Source: an uncultured Alphaproteobacteria bacterium
GTDB taxonomy: Bacteria; Pseudomonadota; Alphaproteobacteria; Rs-D84
Assembly: GCA_949082785.1 (NCBI GenBank)
Contig: CARVLU010000005.1
Span: 2,767 to 66,766, forward strand
Length of the DNA: 64,000 bases
Direction of reading: 5' to 3'
Below the pieces are notes generated by a model, which was not told where the DNA came from, did no database searches, and was given only the letters and a program-made list of their open reading frames with translations. Below are positions 3,677 through 57,146 of the stretch, piece by piece. The position numbers and the translations under genes are program-made. Position 1 is the stretch's first letter, and each line of letters begins with the position of its first letter.

Positions 3677-3840
3677 TTGTCATTGCGAGCCATCGGCGAA
3701 GCAATCCAGATAATAAGAAACAGACCACTATTCACTGGATTGCTTCACTGCGTTCGCAATGACAATGGTGTCTAATTTCCAGGAACTGCATCCCCTTTGT
3801 CATTGCGAGCAAGGCGGTACGCCGCCGCGTGGCAATCCAG
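3677..3840. repeat. Three palindromic R elements (TTGTCATTGCGAG-loop-GCAATCCAG and its inverse) with S2 and S1 spacers
   Basis: R at 3677-3709, inverted S2 (ataataagaaacagaccactattca), inverse R, S1 (tggtgtctaatttccaggaactgcatcccc), then R ending at 3840. Confidence 0.9.
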
Positions 3841-3844
3841 TAAT

Positions 3845-3865
3845 AAAATCCCCCATTCGGGGGAT
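3845..3865 (-). terminator. Terminator of cassette HTH gene copy 1
   Basis: Hairpin ATCCCCC-GAAT-GGGGGAT followed by TTTT on the minus strand, 4 nt after the stop codon. Confidence 0.75.
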
Positions 3866-3869
3866 GGCA

Positions 3870-4097
3870 TTACAAATTATCGCGGCTGCGCCGTATCACC
3901 AACATTGCAAACGCACCGTGGAAAAACCGGCGCAGTATGCCAATGTCAAACAACGCCTGGCCACGTTCACATTTTTTGTAATCTTTCTTGCTCATTTTCA
4001 ACAACGCGGCGGCATCGGCCACACTGATGCGCAGGTGTTGTCGCGCACACCGCATAATATTGCCGTAATAGTTTGCATCGATTAATAATTTTGCCAT
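3870..4097 (-). CDS. 75-aa XRE-family helix-turn-helix protein, cassette copy 1
   Basis: MAKLLIDANYYGNIMRCARQHLRISVADAAALLKMSKKDYKKCERGQALF... matches the HTH_3-type pattern (R..R....iS....A..L.......y...E.G). AAGGAG lies 9 nt before this ATG. The upstream in-frame ATG (4106) abuts the SD. This is 1 of 4 paralogs. Confidence 0.85.
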   Translation of the reverse strand: MAKLLIDANYYGNIMRCARQHLRISVADAAALLKMSKKDYKKCERGQALFDIGILRRFFHGAFAMLVIRRSRDNL

Positions 4098-4290
4098 TAT
4101 TTTCATCTCCTTTTAAGTTAATAAAACACCGCCCGTAAAAGCACAGGCGGTTGGAGGTTAATAGCTATTCGAAGAAATAGTGTGGCTTATTCGATATATT
4201 CGCCACCCTCCAACCAATGGTTGGAATGTTTTATGTCATTGCTGACATCTTCGAAACGGGCTATTAAACCCTACACCGGTTACCCAATGC
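4098..4290 (-). ncRNA. Candidate structured leader / cis-regulatory RNA, cassette copy 1
   Basis: Lies between the TATAAT box and the ORF. Contains the invariant GCATTGGGTAACCGGTGTAGGGT block. Helices H1-H5 are conserved with compensatory changes across the 4 copies. The terminator-like CCGCCTG-N8-CGGGCGG-TGTTTT lies at 4129-4150 in plus coordinates. Confidence 0.6.
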
Positions 4291-4296
4291 GTGTGA

Positions 4297-4325
4297 ATTA
4301 TATCGCACATAACGCGATTGTTCAA
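4297..4325 (-). promoter_or_regulatory. Cassette promoter copy 1: TTGAAC-17 nt-TATAAT with upstream AATAAATTTAAAT
   Basis: Minus strand reads CACACCAATAAATTTAAATTCCTTGAACaatcgcgttatgtgcgaTATAAT. The same arrangement occurs in all 4 copies. Confidence 0.7.
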
Positions 4326-4351
4326 GGAATTTAAATTTATTGGTGTGTTTT

Positions 4352-4711
4352 CTGGATTGCCACGCCACTGACGTGGCTCGCAATGACAAGGGTGTTTAAT
4401 TTCCCGGATACTTCATCCCCTTTGTCATTGCGAGTGCAGTGACGCAATCCAGTGAATAGTGGTCTGTTCCTTATTATCTGGATTGCCACGCCACTGACGT
4501 GGCTCGCAATGACAAGGGTGTTTAATTTCCCGGATACTTCATCCCCTTTGTCATTGCGAGTGCAGTGACGCAATCCAGTGAATAGTGGTCTGTTCCTTAT
4601 TATCTGGATTGCCACGCCACTGACGTGGCTCGCAATGACAAGGGTGTTTAATTTCCAGGAACTATATCTCCTTTGTCATTGCGAGGGAGCATCGCGACCG
4701 CGGCAATCCAG
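4352..4711. repeat. Array 1: 2.85 units of a 126-bp repeat (R1-S1-R2-S2)
   Basis: CTGGATTGCC recurs at 4352, 4478 and 4604. R1 is ctggattgccacgccactgacgtggctcgcaatgacaa. S1 is gggtgtttaatttcccggatacttcatcccc. R2 is tttgtcattgcgagtgcagtgacgcaatccag. S2 is tgaatagtggtctgttccttattat. Confidence 0.95.
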
Positions 4712-29906: not shown

Positions 29907-29945
29907 TTGTCATTGCGAGCAAGCGTAGCGCGCGCGGCAATCCAG
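29907..29945. repeat. Single R element
   Basis: ttgtcattgcgagcaagcgtagcgcgcgcggcaatccag, between two terminators. Confidence 0.9.
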
Positions 29946-29947
29946 TA

Positions 29948-29970
29948 ATAAAATCCCCCGTTCGGGGGAT
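29948..29970 (-). terminator. Terminator of cassette HTH gene copy 2
   Basis: ATCCCCC-GAAC-GGGGGAT + TTTT on the minus strand. Confidence 0.75.
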
Positions 29971-29974
29971 GGCA

Positions 29975-30202
29975 TTACAAATTATCGCGGCTGCGTTTTA
30001 TCACCAACAGTGCAAACGCACCGTGAAAGAAACGACGCAGCGTCCCTTCGGCGAACAGGTCGTGGCCACGTTCACATTTCTGATAATCTTTCTTGTTCAT
30101 TTTCAATAATTTTGCCGCGTCGGCAACACTGATTTTCAAATGTTGGCGCGCATGGCGCATAATATTGCCGTAATACTGGGCATCGATTAATAATTTTGCC
30201 AT
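29975..30202 (-). CDS. 75-aa XRE-family HTH protein, cassette copy 2
   Basis: MAKLLIDAQYYGNIMRHARQHLKISVADAAKLLKMNKKDYQKCERGHDLFAEGTL... AAGGAG lies 9 nt upstream. Confidence 0.88.
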   Translation of the reverse strand: MAKLLIDAQYYGNIMRHARQHLKISVADAAKLLKMNKKDYQKCERGHDLFAEGTLRRFFHGAFALLVIKRSRDNL

Positions 30203-30394
30203 AGTTTAAACTCCTTTTAAGTTATTAAAACACCGCCCGTAAAAGCACAGGCGGTTGGAGGTTCAAAGCTATTCACAGAAATAGTGTGGTTTATTCAATA
30301 TATTCACCACCCTCCAACCAATGGTTGGAATGTTTTTTGTCTTCGCAGACATCTGTGATATGGGCTTTGATACCCTACACCGGTTACCCAATGC
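30203..30394 (-). ncRNA. Candidate structured leader RNA, cassette copy 2
   Basis: Same block order as copy 1. H3 is GUGGU/ACCAC. Extra hairpin UGUCU-GCGA-AGACA. Confidence 0.6.
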
Positions 30395-30400
30395 GTGTGA

Positions 30401-30429
30401 ATTATATCGCATCACGCGCGAATGTTCAA
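30401..30429 (-). promoter_or_regulatory. Cassette promoter copy 2 (TTGAAC-17-TATAAT)
   Basis: Minus strand reads AATAAATTTAAATCCCTTGAACattcgcgcgtgatgcgaTATAAT. Confidence 0.7.
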
Positions 30430-30463
30430 GGGATTTAAATTTATTGGTGTGTGGGTTAATTTA

Positions 30464-30947
30464 CTGGATTGCCACGCGGCGGCGTACCGCCTTGCTCGCA
30501 ATGACAAGGGGGATGCAGTTCCTGGAAATTAGACACCGTTGTCATTGCGAGTGCAGTGACGCAATCCAGTGAATAGTGGTCTGTTCCTTATTATCTGGAT
30601 TGCCGCGCGCGCTACGCTTGCTCGCAATGACAAAGGAGATGCAGTGCCAAGCAATTCAACACCGTTGTCATTGCGAGTGTAACGAAGCAATCCAGTGAAT
30701 AGTGGTCTGTTCCTTATTATCTGGATTGCCACGCGCGCTACGCTTGCTCGCAATGACAAAGGGGATGCAGTTCCTGGAAATCAAACACTGTTGTCATTGC
30801 GAGTGTAACGAAGCAATCCAGTGAATGGTGGTCTGTTCCTTATTATCTGGATTGCCACGCGCGCTACGCTTACTCGCAATGACAAAGGAGATACAGTTCC
30901 TGGAAATTAAACACCGTTGTCATTGCGAGTGTAACGAAGCAATCCAG
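30464..30947. repeat. Array 2: 3.8 units (131/126/126 bp) of R1-S1-R2-S2
   Basis: CTGGATTGCC at 30464, 30595, 30721 and 30847. S1 is in the opposite orientation to array 1 (gggggatgcagttcctggaaattagacaccg), and an alternative S1 occurs (aggagatgcagtgccaagcaattcaacaccg). Confidence 0.95.
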
Positions 30948-31933: not shown

Positions 31934-32010
31934 TGGTGGGTGTTGAGGGACTCAAACCCCCGACCCTCTCGGTGTAAACGAGATGCTCTAATCAACTGAG
32001 CTAAACACCC
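31934..32010 (-). tRNA. tRNA-Val(UAC), CCA encoded
   Basis: Reverse complement is GGGTGTTTAGCTCAGTTGATTAGAGCATCTCGTTTACACCGAGAGGGTCGGGGGTTTGAGTCCCTCAACACCCACCA. Cloverleaf arms pair. The anticodon loop is TTTACAC. Confidence 0.92.
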
Positions 32011-37868: not shown

Positions 37869-38051
37869 AGTTTAAACTCCTTATGTTTTTTAAGCAAAAA
37901 AACACCGCCCGTAAAAGCACAGGCGGTTGGAGGTTAGTAACTACAAACAAGTATAGTGTCGCTTATTTAAGTATATCGCGACCCTCCAACCAATTGTCGG
38001 AGATTTTTTCTTACTTTTGGGTTACTACACCCTACACCGGTTACCCAATGC
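37869..38051 (-). ncRNA. Candidate structured leader RNA, cassette copy 3
   Basis: H3 is GUCGC/GCGAC. H4 is ACUAUA-N6-UGUAGU. It lacks the GNRA hairpin of copies 1 and 2. Confidence 0.6.
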
Positions 38052-38057
38052 GTGTGA

Positions 38058-38120: not shown

Positions 38121-38471
38121 CTGGATTGCCACGCGCGCTACGCTTGCTCGCAATGACAAAGGAGATGCAGTGCCAAGCAATTCAACACCATTGTCATTGC
38201 GAGTGCAACGAAGCAATCCAGTGAATGGTGGTCTGTTCCTTATTATCCGGATTGCCACGCCATACCGGCGCCCCGCAATGACAAAGGAGATACAGTGCCA
38301 AGCAATTCAACACCATTGTCATTGCGAGTGTAGTGACGCAATCCAGTGAATGGTGGTCTGTTCCTTATTATCTGGATTGCCGCGCCACTGACGTGGTTCG
38401 CAATGACAAAGGAGATACAGTGCCAAGCAATTCAACACCGTTGTCATTGCGAGTGCAGTGACGCAATCCAG
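38121..38471. repeat. Array 3: 2.8 units (126/125 bp) of R1-S1-R2-S2
   Basis: CTGGATTGCC-type starts at 38121, 38247 (ccggattgcc) and 38372. All S1 are of the gtgccaagcaattcaac type. Confidence 0.95.
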
Positions 38472-56417: not shown

Positions 56418-56461
56418 TTGTCATTGCGAGCAAGGCGGTACGCCGCCGCGTGGCAATCCAG
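56418..56461. repeat. Single R element preceding cassette promoter copy 4
   Basis: ttgtcattgcgagcaaggcggtacgccgccgcgtggcaatccag, identical to the R at 3797-3840. Confidence 0.9.
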
Positions 56462-56495: not shown

Positions 56496-56524
56496 TTGAA
56501 CATTCGCGTGGGATGCGATATAAT
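56496..56524 (+). promoter_or_regulatory. Cassette promoter copy 4 (TTGAAC-17-TATAAT)
   Basis: CACACCAATAAATTTAAATCCCTTGAACattcgcgtgggatgcgaTATAAT, read directly on the plus strand. Confidence 0.7.
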
Positions 56525-56530
56525 TCACAC

Positions 56531-56706
56531 GCATTGGGTAACCGGTGTAGGGTGTCAAGACCCGTAAACAAGAAAAAAATCTCCAACCCGGTTGGAGGGC
56601 TCGCGAATAACCAATAAGCGGCACTATACTTGTTTGTAGTCTTGAACCTCCAACCGCCCACAATAACGTCGGGCGGTGTTTTAATAACTTAAAAGGAGTT
56701 TAAACT
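56531..56706 (+). ncRNA. Candidate structured leader RNA, cassette copy 4
   Basis: GCATTGGGTAACCGGTGTAGGGT block. H2 CTCCAAC-CCG-GTTGGAG (56581-56597). CCTCCAACC (56647-56655). CCGCCC-N11-GGGCGG-TGTTTT (56654-56682). AAGGAG (56693-56698). Confidence 0.6.
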
Positions 56707-56934
56707 ATGGCAAAATTATTAATCGACGCCAATTACTATGGCAGTGTGATGCGCCATGCGCGCCAACATTTGAAAATCAGTGTGGCCGACGCGGCAAAAT
56801 TACTGAAAATGAACAAGAAAGATTATCAGAAATGTGAACGTGGCCACGACCTGTTCGCCGAAGGGACGCTGCGCCGGTTTTTCCACGGGGCATTTGCCAT
56901 GCTGGTGATAAAACGCAGCCGCGATAATTTGTAA
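56707..56934 (+). CDS. 75-aa XRE-family HTH protein, cassette copy 4
   Basis: MAKLLIDANYYGSVMRHARQHLKISVADAAKLLKMNKKDYQKCERGHDLFAEGTL... Confidence 0.88.
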   Translation: MAKLLIDANYYGSVMRHARQHLKISVADAAKLLKMNKKDYQKCERGHDLFAEGTLRRFFHGAFAMLVIKRSRDNL

Positions 56935-56935
56935 C

Positions 56936-56960
56936 ATTGTCCCCCGAATGGGGGATTTTA
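56936..56960 (+). terminator. Terminator of cassette HTH gene copy 4
   Basis: TCCCCC-GAAT-GGGGGA + TTTTATT, 3 nt after the stop. Confidence 0.75.
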
Positions 56961-56963
56961 TTA

Positions 56964-57146
56964 CTGGATTGCCACGCGGCGTCCGTCTTCGCTGCGCTAC
57001 GTCGCGACTTGCTCGCAATGACAAAGGAGATACAGCGCCAGCCACCGTTGTCATTGCGAACGCAGTGAAGCAATCCAGTAAATAATGAACATTGCCACTT
57101 CCCTGGATTGCCACGCGGCGGCATACCGCCTTGCTCGCAATGACAA
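56964..57146. repeat. R1-S1-R2-S2-R1 group downstream of cassette copy 4
   Basis: R1 at 56964-57024 (long loop gtccgtcttcgctgcgctacgtcgcgac, also seen at 6479-6510), R2 at 57048-57078, R1 at 57103-57146. Confidence 0.9.

Follow-up and report, generated by a model that had tools for sequence, protein, structure and literature searches.

A covarying leader RNA of uncultured gut Alphaproteobacteria, a probable divergent relative of sRNA-Xcc1 and candidate terminator-based attenuator

The leader described here is, judged from its sequence, one of four copies of a structured RNA family of about 160–190 nt from uncultured gut Alphaproteobacteria in the analyzed window, i.e., the whole 64-kb stretch of DNA. 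Approximately 150 more copies, found in one MAG and many gut metagenomes, carry compensatory changes in every helix. On balance, it appears probable that this RNA represents a divergent, A/U-rich branch of an extended sRNA-Xcc1 superfamily and that it most likely works as a terminator-based attenuator that also yields a small RNA (sRNA). In the model proposed below, the RNA probably decides whether the small gene located behind it is transcribed. A published description of the motif was not found in a full-text literature search, and the leader gave no blastn match in phage and plasmid collections.

The original prediction described four leaders that share an invariant 5′ block, and GCATTGGGTAACCGGTGTAGGGT is indeed present as an exact match in all four, at 56531(+), 38051(−), 30394(−), and 4290(−), with none expected by chance. 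The block is invariant in these four copies, but it is itself a hairpin, P1, all seven pairs of which covary in relatives. The column identity across the four aligned leaders is 84%, and the alignment contains the other elements that had been claimed: H1 as GGGU-N6-RCCC; an extra GNRA-capped hairpin limited to copies 1 and 2; the YUCCRAC/GUUGGAG stem (H2 of the prediction); the H3 variants GUGGC/GCCAC, GUGGU/ACCAC, GUCGC/GCGAC, and UCGC/GCGG; the H4 variants CUAUU..AAUAG or ACUAUA..UGUAGU; H5 as CCGCC..GGGCGG followed by UGUUUU; and AAGGAG located 10–21 nt 3′ of the U-tract. Copies 1–3 are encoded on the minus strand, at 4117..4292 (cmsearch 146.4 bits; ORF 4097–3870), 30221..30396 (146.8 bits; ORF 30202–29975), and 37893..38053 (110 bits; ORF 37868–37641), respectively. 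A covariance-model search of the window revealed no further, more diverged copies at E ≤ 1. Copies 4 and 1 fold more stably than expected by chance, with MFE z-scores of −3.8 and −6.5, respectively. All four copies are preceded by the same sigma-70-like promoter, the terminator of copy 2 was found by a terminator scan, and each copy is predicted to have its own promoter and terminator.

Copy 4, on the plus strand, illustrates the arrangement of these elements. Its predicted sigma-70-type promoter, TTGAAC-17-TATAAT, occupies 56496..56524 (10/12 matches in the promoter scan), and the RNA probably starts at approximately 56530. The P1 hairpin of the MFE folds (GCAUUGG-GUAA-CCGGUGU, 56531..56548), whose pairs are changed on both sides in relatives, has a GNRA loop and is followed by H1 (GGGU..ACCC, 56550..56563; A6 alignment), the loop of which carries a segment named V1 (UCAAGAC, 56555–56561). 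Next come X (AAACAAG, 56566..56572), assigned as the partner of X′ from the MFE fold and within-copy complementarity, and segment a (CUCCAAC, 56581..56587), which is a near-copy of segment c and forms the 5′ arm of the a.b hairpin. Segment b (GGUUGGAGG, 56590..56598), the partner of either a or c, leads into the hairpin H3 (UCGC..GCGG, 56601..56621), with its conserved A/U-rich loop, and the hairpin H4 (ACUAUA..UGUAGU, 56623..56640), in which the loop and the loop-side 3′ arm constitute X′ (CUUGUUU, 56629–56635). V1′ (GUCUUGA, 56639..56645), the long-range partner of V1, and segment c (CCUCCAACC, 56647..56655) follow, and the final CC of c forms the base of the terminator stem. The intrinsic-terminator-like hairpin, CCGCCC..GGGCGG and then UGUUUU, was recognized in the sequence at 56654..56682, upstream of the AAGGAG ribosome-binding site (56693–56698) and the 75-aa XRE-type HTH ORF (56707–56934, stop included). 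The terminator scan placed a second terminator, CCCCC-GAAU-GGGGG-AUUUU, at the end of the cassette (56941..56959). There is no room upstream of the HTH ORF for a promoter of its own, and the order of promoter, leader, G+C hairpin with U-tract, and promoterless gene is the layout of an intrinsic-terminator attenuator. Family-wide, a ribosome-binding site is present 10–25 nt past the U-tract in 123/151 copies.

Four copies are too few for the analysis of covariation, so larger alignments were needed. The covariance model R1, which gives the window copies 102–147 bits, detects at least 34 copies in 246 kb of one MAG and matches 116 copies among the metagenome loci listed; more than 120 metagenome stretches among the matches listed carry the A/U-rich branch. 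Covariation was established with two alignments, of 43 and 116 sequences, in which 96.0% and 94.9% of the cells, respectively, are paired, versus 76.7% and 75.4% in shuffles. None of 500 shuffles equalled the observed pairing, and slid controls were only about 35–50% paired, so that the claim of a covariation-supported structured RNA is upheld against both types of control. A mutual-information scan that is blind to structure recovered the same helices and one extra pair between columns 44 and 268. Among the local helices, the H1 pair at A6 columns 39–57 is GC in 59, AU in 30, and GU in 21 sequences, with zero unpaired, and the H4 pair at columns 270–288 is UA in 69 and AU in 43. In H3, all four pairs are changed on both sides, an extra closing pair (columns 206–267) is GC in 92 and AU in 10 sequences, and the loop has the consensus GAAUAUAUUGAAUAA across the family. 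The terminator stem covaries as well (columns 312–356; AU:49, GC:43).

The strongest covariation was found in long-range helices that had been missed by the original prediction and that connect the loop and 3′ flank of H1 with the loop and 3′ flank of H4. V1, in the H1 loop, pairs with the 7 nt immediately 5′ of c (V1′), and X, located after H1, pairs with the H4 loop (X′). All seven V1.V1′ pairs can form in 117/125 copies but in only 7% of non-self combinations, and V1 itself occurs as 42 different sequences. All seven pairs covary, and they rank at the top of the structure-blind scan. The first MAFFT alignment (A3, 125 sequences) was too wide for model building and weak over X, and for this reason, X.X′ was tested by self versus non-self complementarity rather than by columns. 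The longest Watson–Crick run of X.X′ has a mean of 7.35 within a copy and 4.05 between copies (n = 125). The extra pair at columns 44–268 (UA:62, CG:37), also missed earlier, is an isolated tertiary Watson–Crick pair that joins the nucleotide following the 5′ arm of H1 to the single nucleotide separating H3 from H4. An optional hairpin, Hopt, can be inserted between X and a.b, and in the window copies it is followed by UAAAA. The MFE folds favour a.b together with a continuous V1.V1′/X.X′ rod, which competes with H1 and H4; H1 and H4 nevertheless covary. The fold may be either pseudoknotted or switching.

Segments a, b, and c form the centre of the proposed switch. It had been claimed that b pairs with either a or c and that both pairings are kept by compensatory change, and the larger alignments agree with this. 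GGUUGGAGG and CCUCCAACC are perfectly complementary in copy 4. Pairing of the a.b helix reaches 97.7% and 95.4% in the two alignments, with both-side changes in 5/8 and 4/8 pairs, and the b.c helix is 88% paired, with 6/10 pairs changed on both sides, in an alignment that was fitted to a.b and not to b.c. The variants of a, b, and c change in step (GGCAGGAGG/CCUCCUGCC/CUCCUGUC and GGUCAGGAGG/CCUCCUGACC/CUCCUGAACC, and also GGUCGGG/CCCGACC), and because the three segments vary together, both a.b and b.c are considered conserved. The b.c stem exceeds a.b by 1–2 bp, and beyond the reach of a, it shows changes such as GGAGU/ACUCC, GGAGAU/AUCUCC, and GGAAA/UUUCC. It closes a three-way junction around H3 and H4. 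The computed energies of the two conformers differ by 0–10 kcal/mol in the window copies. A leader peptide behind b, which resembles a ribosome-binding site, was also considered. Its candidate start codon, a GUG, is part of the covarying arm of H3 and is not conserved, and the idea was rejected for this reason.

The original prediction described the terminator and antiterminator pairings as mutually exclusive. The part of this claim that stands is that c overlaps the terminator, the arm of which begins with the CC that ends c. However, the overlap amounts to 2 nt, i.e., two basal G–C pairs, and since a 7-bp hairpin survives b.c pairing in the window copies, “mutually exclusive” is too strong for them. 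The window terminator has a computed energy of −14.3 kcal/mol, and a hairpin of −9.7 kcal/mol is kept when b.c is enforced. With such a strong terminator and 7 bp left, b.c may lower termination only modestly in these copies. Family-wide, the terminator hairpin has a median of −7.9 kcal/mol and falls to −3.1 kcal/mol without the two C residues shared with c, so that dropping the two shared pairs costs a median of 4.6 of the 7.9 kcal/mol.

The mechanism suggested by this arrangement would begin during transcription, when the adjacent a.b hairpin would form first and leave c free. With c free, the terminator would form, and an sRNA of about 170 nt would be released. Alternatively, c would displace its near-twin a from b. 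V1.V1′, X.X′, and the tertiary pair would lend additional stability to the resulting b.c stem, which would sequester the two G–C pairs at the terminator base, beside the U-tract. The terminator would then work less well, and transcription would continue into the downstream gene. The balance could be shifted by a protein or a ligand, by an RNA that sister copies supply in trans, or by the kinetics of transcription. Three successive, alternatively pairing segments, an intrinsic terminator, and a promoterless gene directly downstream are features shared with trp-type and riboswitch attenuators. In contrast to these classical attenuators, the overlap with the terminator is limited here to two basal pairs, there is no leader peptide, a ligand or factor is not part of the present picture, and the leader is far more elaborate, with long-range helices of the pseudoknot type. 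ORF-less tandem arrays of the RNA exist, and thus the RNA can occur with nothing to attenuate.

The relation to known RNAs also differs in part from what was first proposed, namely that no RNA family could be assigned. At the gathering threshold, Rfam returned only 16S rRNA and a tRNA for the whole window, and in this sense, the claim holds; there is, however, a known relative, sRNA-Xcc1 (RF02221), an integron-cassette sRNA of Xanthomonas campestris that has relatives in Xylella and in prophages. It is the only recurring Rfam near-hit, with 30–37 bits on seven copies against a threshold of 53 and always over the b..c domain. In E-value mode, the sRNA-Xcc1 model gives 33.9 bits for copy 4 and no hit for copy 1, and relatives reach 36.7, 32.5, 32.3, 31.1, and 30.4 bits, compared with 64–74 bits at genuine sRNA-Xcc1 loci. 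The Rfam alignment spans 56590–56663 and includes b.c, H3, and H4, in agreement with a shared three-way junction. R1, in turn, had no hit in genuine sRNA-Xcc1 loci. With R1 missing these loci and the Rfam model staying below threshold, homology rests on a shared architecture and not on a significant score.

This architecture is extensive. Genuine sRNA-Xcc1 loci have the same P1, GGAG-N-V1-UCC, X, decoy a, and b..c in the same order, with a 5′ domain that is not modelled by Rfam. In 7/7 of them, V1/V1′, X/X′, and a/b are complementary with locus-specific sequences, and the choice of C–G or U–A for the tertiary pair can also be read from their sequences. Both groups have a G/C-rich closing stem of 9–10 bp, two hairpins, a 3′ joiner of 6–8 nt of the UUUUGA type and then RCC, and an H3 loop of the type AAUA(A)-[optional hairpin]-AAUAA. 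Members of both groups occur in several copies or in tandem on accessory DNA, just ahead of small genes of the same orientation. In Xylella, sRNA-Xcc1 has multiple copies and tandem arrays (PMC12189769), and it was found upstream of symE and of an ORF6N gene. There are also differences. The window copies are A/U-rich and have GGUUGGAGG instead of GGCCGGGGG, their Hopt is followed by UAAAA and not by the U7 tract of sRNA-Xcc1, and a separate canonical terminator hairpin is present at their end. A third V1 copy, located 8–12 nt downstream in 4/7 genuine loci, is absent from the window copies. In Rfam and the located literature, sRNA-Xcc1 is a trans-acting sRNA of 87–88 nt without the 5′ domain, and in Xcc 8004, it accumulates as an 88-nt RNA with a 5′ end at the first base of b (PMC2996969).

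The genes behind the RNA are heterogeneous. The product of the HTH ORF at 56707–56934 reaches 21.6 bits with Pfam HTH_31, under the 27-bit cut-off; 35 close homologues were found, and divergent HTH relatives behind other RNA copies pass HTH_3/HTH_31. Elsewhere, the RNA is followed by genes for small XRE-type HTH proteins, by genes for varied secreted or Cys-rich proteins, or, in tandem arrays, by none, and the genes do not share a metabolic or transport pathway. The original prediction described the RNA as a cassette leader, but it is not specific to the HTH cassette, since many unrelated genes follow the RNA and ORF-less arrays occur. The HTH protein was considered as an obligate partner and rejected on account of these variable downstream genes: its ORF is confined to one GTDB species and close metagenome relatives, the RNA is distributed far more widely, and most copies precede genes other than the HTH ORF. 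It is therefore unlikely that this protein is the dedicated factor of the RNA.

The architecture can also be read in other ways, the most developed of which compares it with immunity-type RNAs. The RNA, terminated or processed and perhaps active through the b..c junction only, might act in trans on nascent transcripts of its own locus or sister copies, in the manner of C4 of phages P1/P7 and CI of P4. Through pairing of V1′/X′ with V1/X, a private address of 14–17 nt, or of b with a and c, it would bring about termination or a translational block, and the hypervariable V1 and X would prevent cross-talk among dozens of paralogues. This possibility is rather unlikely. The a–b–c order is the seqA–seqB–seqC order of P4, which speaks for it, as do the hypervariability of V1 and X beside conserved loops and a/b/c, the ORF-less arrays, and the third V1 copy and the 5′ end at b in sRNA-Xcc1. 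C4/CI (RF01695) is likewise a small folded RNA inside the leader of the genes it controls, in which it causes premature termination or a translational block of accessory or antirepressor-type genes; in both systems, one segment of the RNA is complementary to near-identical sequences on either side of it, here a and c, which covary with b, and KilA-N and ORF6N genes are found behind relatives of the present RNA. Two loci, L143 and L144, have a sequence matching X′ that extends over the ribosome-binding site of a KilA-N-type gene, which is the layout of P1 c4-icd-ant (PMC8201110) and a further point for a trans role. Such a target over the ribosome-binding site is restricted to some GC-rich sRNA-Xcc1 loci and is not seen in the A/U-rich family, where neither additional V1 or X sequences nor their complements were found past the terminator in 120 copies (self equals non-self); the variable helices, considered as guides against the downstream mRNA, likewise gave no signal in the same type of comparison, and this candidate was rejected. 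Moreover, V1.V1′ and X.X′ are able to form in cis in every copy, so that a trans role is not needed for their covariation. E-value-mode scans at E ≤ 10 and E ≤ 1 gave no Rfam C4 hit, and there is no sequence or covariance-model similarity between C4/CI and the present RNA. Unlike in C4/CI, b.c is the closing stem of the RNA itself, and a counterpart of the 5′ end made by RNase P is only suggested by the closing stem followed by RCC.

If the terminator is simply leaky, no switching would be required at all. The RNA could then be a constitutive structured sRNA gene or a stabilizing or insulating 5′ module, with a.b serving only as an intermediate or chaperone while the b.c junction folds and with genes expressed by fixed read-through. 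The survival of the window terminators under b.c pairing, the marginal terminators of the family as a whole, which could simply leak, and the gene-less arrays fit such a module. It is nevertheless improbable, because the triple covariation of a, b, and c indicates selection on both pairings, and in approximately 150 copies, c has kept its place precisely at the base of the terminator. Even less probable is a riboswitch or protein-binding leader, in which the pseudoknotted junction would recognize a dedicated protein or a small molecule and set termination through stabilization of b.c or a.b, with the conserved unpaired UAAAA, the H3 loop GAAUAUAUUGAAUAA, and the tertiary pair as binding elements. 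Such a leader would be in keeping with the tertiary architecture, which is complex and conserved and includes an isolated covarying pair, with the conserved loops and the two near-isoenergetic folds, and with an a/b/c arrangement that, together with the terminator, resembles an expression platform. However, no metabolic or transport theme unites the downstream genes (XRE, secreted or Cys-rich proteins, KilA-N, symE, and ORF6N in relatives, or none), dozens of copies per genome and tandem arrays are atypical for metabolite riboswitches, and the HTH protein is missing from most loci and so cannot be the general factor. The reading as an attenuator that also releases an sRNA remains the one we prefer.

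For more than ten years, sRNA-Xcc1 has been listed in Rfam as an 87-nt “trans-acting sRNA” with no mechanism attached to it. What is new here is an architecture of about 170 nt that combines a 5′ domain and two long-range helices with a tertiary pair and a decoy/antiterminator toggle and that is common to genuine sRNA-Xcc1 loci and a very large unannotated A/U-rich branch. It provides a specific mechanism that is open to testing, and it improves considerably the model available for annotation. A bolder and doubtful reading is that the whole superfamily, including sRNA-Xcc1, might be a self-addressed RNA regulator, in which the hypervariable V1/X duplex (14–17 bp) would serve as a private address and the a/b/c toggle would set termination or read-through. 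The active form would then be the pseudoknotted three-way junction, and each of the dozens of paralogues would recognize no leader other than its own or a selected one, whether in cis or in trans. If this were true, gut Alphaproteobacteria would run many surface-protein and regulator genes on an RNA-only logic similar to that of C4/CI, hitherto known from just a few phages. As the RNA is abundant ahead of genes for secreted or surface proteins and XRE regulators, it may be a main regulatory device for the variable accessory genes of uncultured gut Alphaproteobacteria.

The window contains exactly four copies of the 23-nt block GCATTGGGTAACCGGTGTAGGGT (56531 on the forward strand; 38051, 30394 and 4290 on the reverse strand), where none is expected by chance. 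All four cassettes share one layout, in which a TTGAAC-17-TATAAT promoter is followed by a leader of ~160–175 nt, a G+C hairpin with UGUUUU, AAGGAG, a 75-aa ORF and a second terminator. For copy 4, a promoter scan places the promoter at 56496–56524 (+), and the sequence layout gives an RNA from ~56530 to 56682 (+) and an ORF at 56707–56934 (+). The folding of the leaders beats that of shuffled sequence (z-scores of −3.8 and −6.5). In the promoter spacer (56504–56518), an imperfect palindrome of the form TCGC-N7-GCGA is conserved, its centre being variable; it lies in the same place in copies 1–3 and in the HTH-type copies of the MAG “Alphaproteobacteria bacterium SC0372_S2_6”. HTH-linked copies have this palindrome, copies followed by other genes lack it, and the 75-aa HTH protein might regulate its own gene through it as an operator.

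REP-like palindromic repeats (GTCATTGCGAGC ... GCTCGCAATGAC, terminal GGCAATCCAG) were counted 29 times in the window vs. 0.5 expected, at 3679–4686, 29909–30930, 38146–38454, 56420–56431 and 57011–57144. Nearly all flank the four cassettes, on both sides, with upstream arrays that have a period of ~126 nt. The HTH-type copies of the MAG begin directly after ...AATCCAG. The cassettes may be located within such elements or be mobilised together with them. The window also carries a complete bacterial 16S rRNA gene at 129–1630 (−), ~2.2 kb from the copy 1 cassette, and a tRNA-Val(TAC) at 31934–32010 (−).

The RNA family extends well beyond the window. A profile of the four leaders, applied to the HTH-ORF loci of the MAG, gave 31 RNA copies, ~14 of them diverged and without an HTH ORF behind. 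Metagenome contigs were scanned with a pattern built from segment b, the loop of hairpin H3 and segment c (b being the middle one of three successive segments, able to pair with a or c). At least 120 matching stretches were found in nominally human-gut and other metagenome contigs, and four viral contigs matched as well. The covariance model R1 recovers the four window copies at 102–147 bits and no further ones in the 64 kb; it finds at least 34 copies within 246 kb of the MAG and at least 116 in metagenome loci among the matches listed. At several loci (L051, 155–1006; L116, 5273–6025; L014, 16753–17807; L013, 2342–3331), three to four RNAs stand head to tail in arrays; every copy has a promoter and a terminator of its own, and the copies are not separated by ORFs.

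Covariation was judged on 43- and 116-sequence alignments with shuffled and slid controls. Compensatory change was seen in every modelled helix; 95–96% of cells were paired vs. 75–77% after shuffling (0/500 shuffles reached the observed value) and ~35–50% in slid controls. The covariation proposed in the original prediction was thus borne out, and every pairing it listed was found as described in the window copies. Its “invariant” 5′ block is indeed present in all four, but contains a 5′ hairpin, P1, in which 7/7 pairs changed on both sides. The same holds for 5/5 pairs of the optional hairpin Hopt, 4–5/8 of the a.b helix and 4/4 of H3. In three further helices, single pairs illustrate the change: H4 (UA:69, AU:43), H1 (GC:59, AU:30, GU:21, none unpaired) and the terminator stem (AU:49, GC:43).

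The strongest signal was absent from that description. V1 (7 nt, H1 loop) is complementary to V1′ (7 nt immediately 5′ of c), with 7/7 pairs in 117 of 125 copies vs. 7% of non-self combinations, across 42 distinct V1 sequences; these pairs also rank top in a structure-blind mutual-information scan. A second long-range helix joins X, the stretch after H1, to X′, which comprises the H4 loop and 2–3 nt of the H4 3′ arm (mean longest Watson–Crick run of 7.35 within copies vs. 4.05 between copies). Since the two helices are only 2 nt apart on each strand, they can stack as a single rod, and MFE folds show this rod. It overlaps H1 and H4 by 1–3 nt, and H1 and H4 covary too; the RNA would therefore form either interlocked pseudoknots or alternating folds. 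The scan also returned an isolated long-range pair that links the nucleotide following the 5′ arm of H1 with the lone nucleotide separating H3 from H4 (columns 44 and 268 of the 116-sequence alignment; UA:62, CG:37, other:11, with lineage effects possible), assigned by eye in copy 4 to U56553 and A56623 (+). It points to a putative defined tertiary fold, with the 5′ domain docked on the three-way junction.

Segment b (GGUUGGAGG) can pair with upstream a (CUCCAAC) or downstream c (CCUCCAACC). In diverged copies, the segments change jointly (GGCAGGAGG / CCUCCUGCC / CUCCUGUC; GGUCAGGAGG / CCUCCUGACC / CUCCUGAACC; GGUCGGG / CCCGACC), and b.c also varies outside the reach of a (GGAGU/ACUCC, GGAGAU/AUCUCC, GGAAA/UUUCC, GGGGG/CCCCC). 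Even with the alignment fitted to a.b, b.c remains 88% paired, and 6/10 of its pairs changed on both sides. Selection therefore acts on both helices, in keeping with the predicted alternative pairings of b. The terminator's basal pairs, which adjoin the U-tract, involve the final two C residues of c. Family-wide, this hairpin is marginal (by approximate parsing, median −7.9 kcal/mol, and −3.1 without the two c-derived pairs). In the window copies it is stronger, passing from −14.3 to −9.7 kcal/mol, and persists with b.c enforced, so the predicted overlap at the stem base stands but strict mutual exclusion does not. Two global conformers of the window copies lie 0–10 kcal/mol apart, one with a.b, the rod and the full terminator, the other with the b.c junction, H1, H4 and a shortened terminator.

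The cassette ORF is a weak XRE-type HTH protein (Pfam HTH_31, 21.6 bits, under the cut-off) with only 35 close homologues; within the GTDB species genomes it is confined to the above MAG, at 16 loci. One 75-aa homologue (P0015) bears the NCBI name ‘CRISPR-associated endonuclease Cas1’, almost certainly a misannotation. Across the family, an ORF with a ribosome-binding site begins ~10–170 nt from the RNA in 123 of 151 copies, usually 10–25 nt past the U-tract, which leaves no room for a separate promoter. These ORFs vary in kind: some encode small XRE/Cro-type HTH proteins, of which several are above Pfam thresholds; many encode secreted proteins (signal-peptide, Cys-rich or repeat-containing); and others encode proteins without any match. 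Among the ORFs downstream of the RNA in L107, L037, L095, L086 and L040, several secreted proteins have the N-terminal motif VVSASYVKGAYNDAI or similar and no Pfam match, while the GYxFxGW Listeria-Bacteroides repeat is found in others; together they resemble a family of variable surface proteins. Such heterogeneity indicates a general promoter-plus-leader module rather than an accessory of the HTH gene, and makes a metabolite riboswitch unlikely.

An Rfam scan gave the leaders no match above threshold, in line with the original remark that the RNA could not be assigned to a familiar family. The sole recurring near-match was sRNA-Xcc1 (RF02221), at 30–37 bits vs. a threshold of 53 and always on the b..c domain, so by Rfam's criterion the RNA falls outside that family. 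Genuine sRNA-Xcc1 loci from viral contigs score 64–74 bits, and R1 does not detect them. In published work sRNA-Xcc1 has been treated as an 88-nt sRNA (PMC2996969), and no published description of a 5′ domain was found in a literature search. Direct reading of seven genuine loci nevertheless revealed, upstream of Rfam's 87 nt and in 7/7 cases, the same organisation as in the present RNA: a GNRA-capped P1, GGAG-N-V1-UCC, X, a hairpin and a decoy a complementary to b (among these loci, on viral contigs, are L143 10100–10340, L144 4950–5180, L145 and L147). The tertiary pair is likewise C-G or U-A. V1/V1′ and X/X′ differ locus by locus, for example UCAAAAC/GUUUUGA with GUAACAAG/CUUGUUAC and UGAAGAC/GUCUUCA with CCGAGUACAG/CUGUGCUCGG. 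sRNA-Xcc1 is reportedly multicopy and tandem in Xylella, with five tandem genes in Xylella fastidiosa (PMC12189769), resembling the ORF-less arrays; in integron cassettes it precedes symE, and in APSE phages an ORF6N gene. Judged by architecture, the present RNA is taken to be a divergent branch of an extended sRNA-Xcc1 family.

The main rival explanation is a trans-acting immunity RNA like C4/CI, in which V1 and X would serve as a private address. It fits the hypervariability of V1/X and the GC-rich relatives. A third V1 copy lies 8–12 nt downstream of the modelled RNA in four of the seven sRNA-Xcc1 loci, and in L143 and L144 a match to X′ falls across the ribosome-binding site of the following gene (KilA-N-type in L143). 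The immunity organisation of phages P1 and P4 underlies the likening. The layout of L143 and L144 is like that of the P1 c4-icd-ant region (PMC8201110). Downstream targets in the present branch, however, give no support, as no copies or complements of the variable helices were found downstream of the terminator.

The leaders thus represent a real and abundant family of elaborately folded RNAs that each have a promoter and a terminator of their own, with conserved alternative pairings beside the latter. We infer a terminator-based attenuator, in which a.b would be the default state and b.c with the long-range contacts the read-through state, and which would also release an sRNA of ~170 nt.
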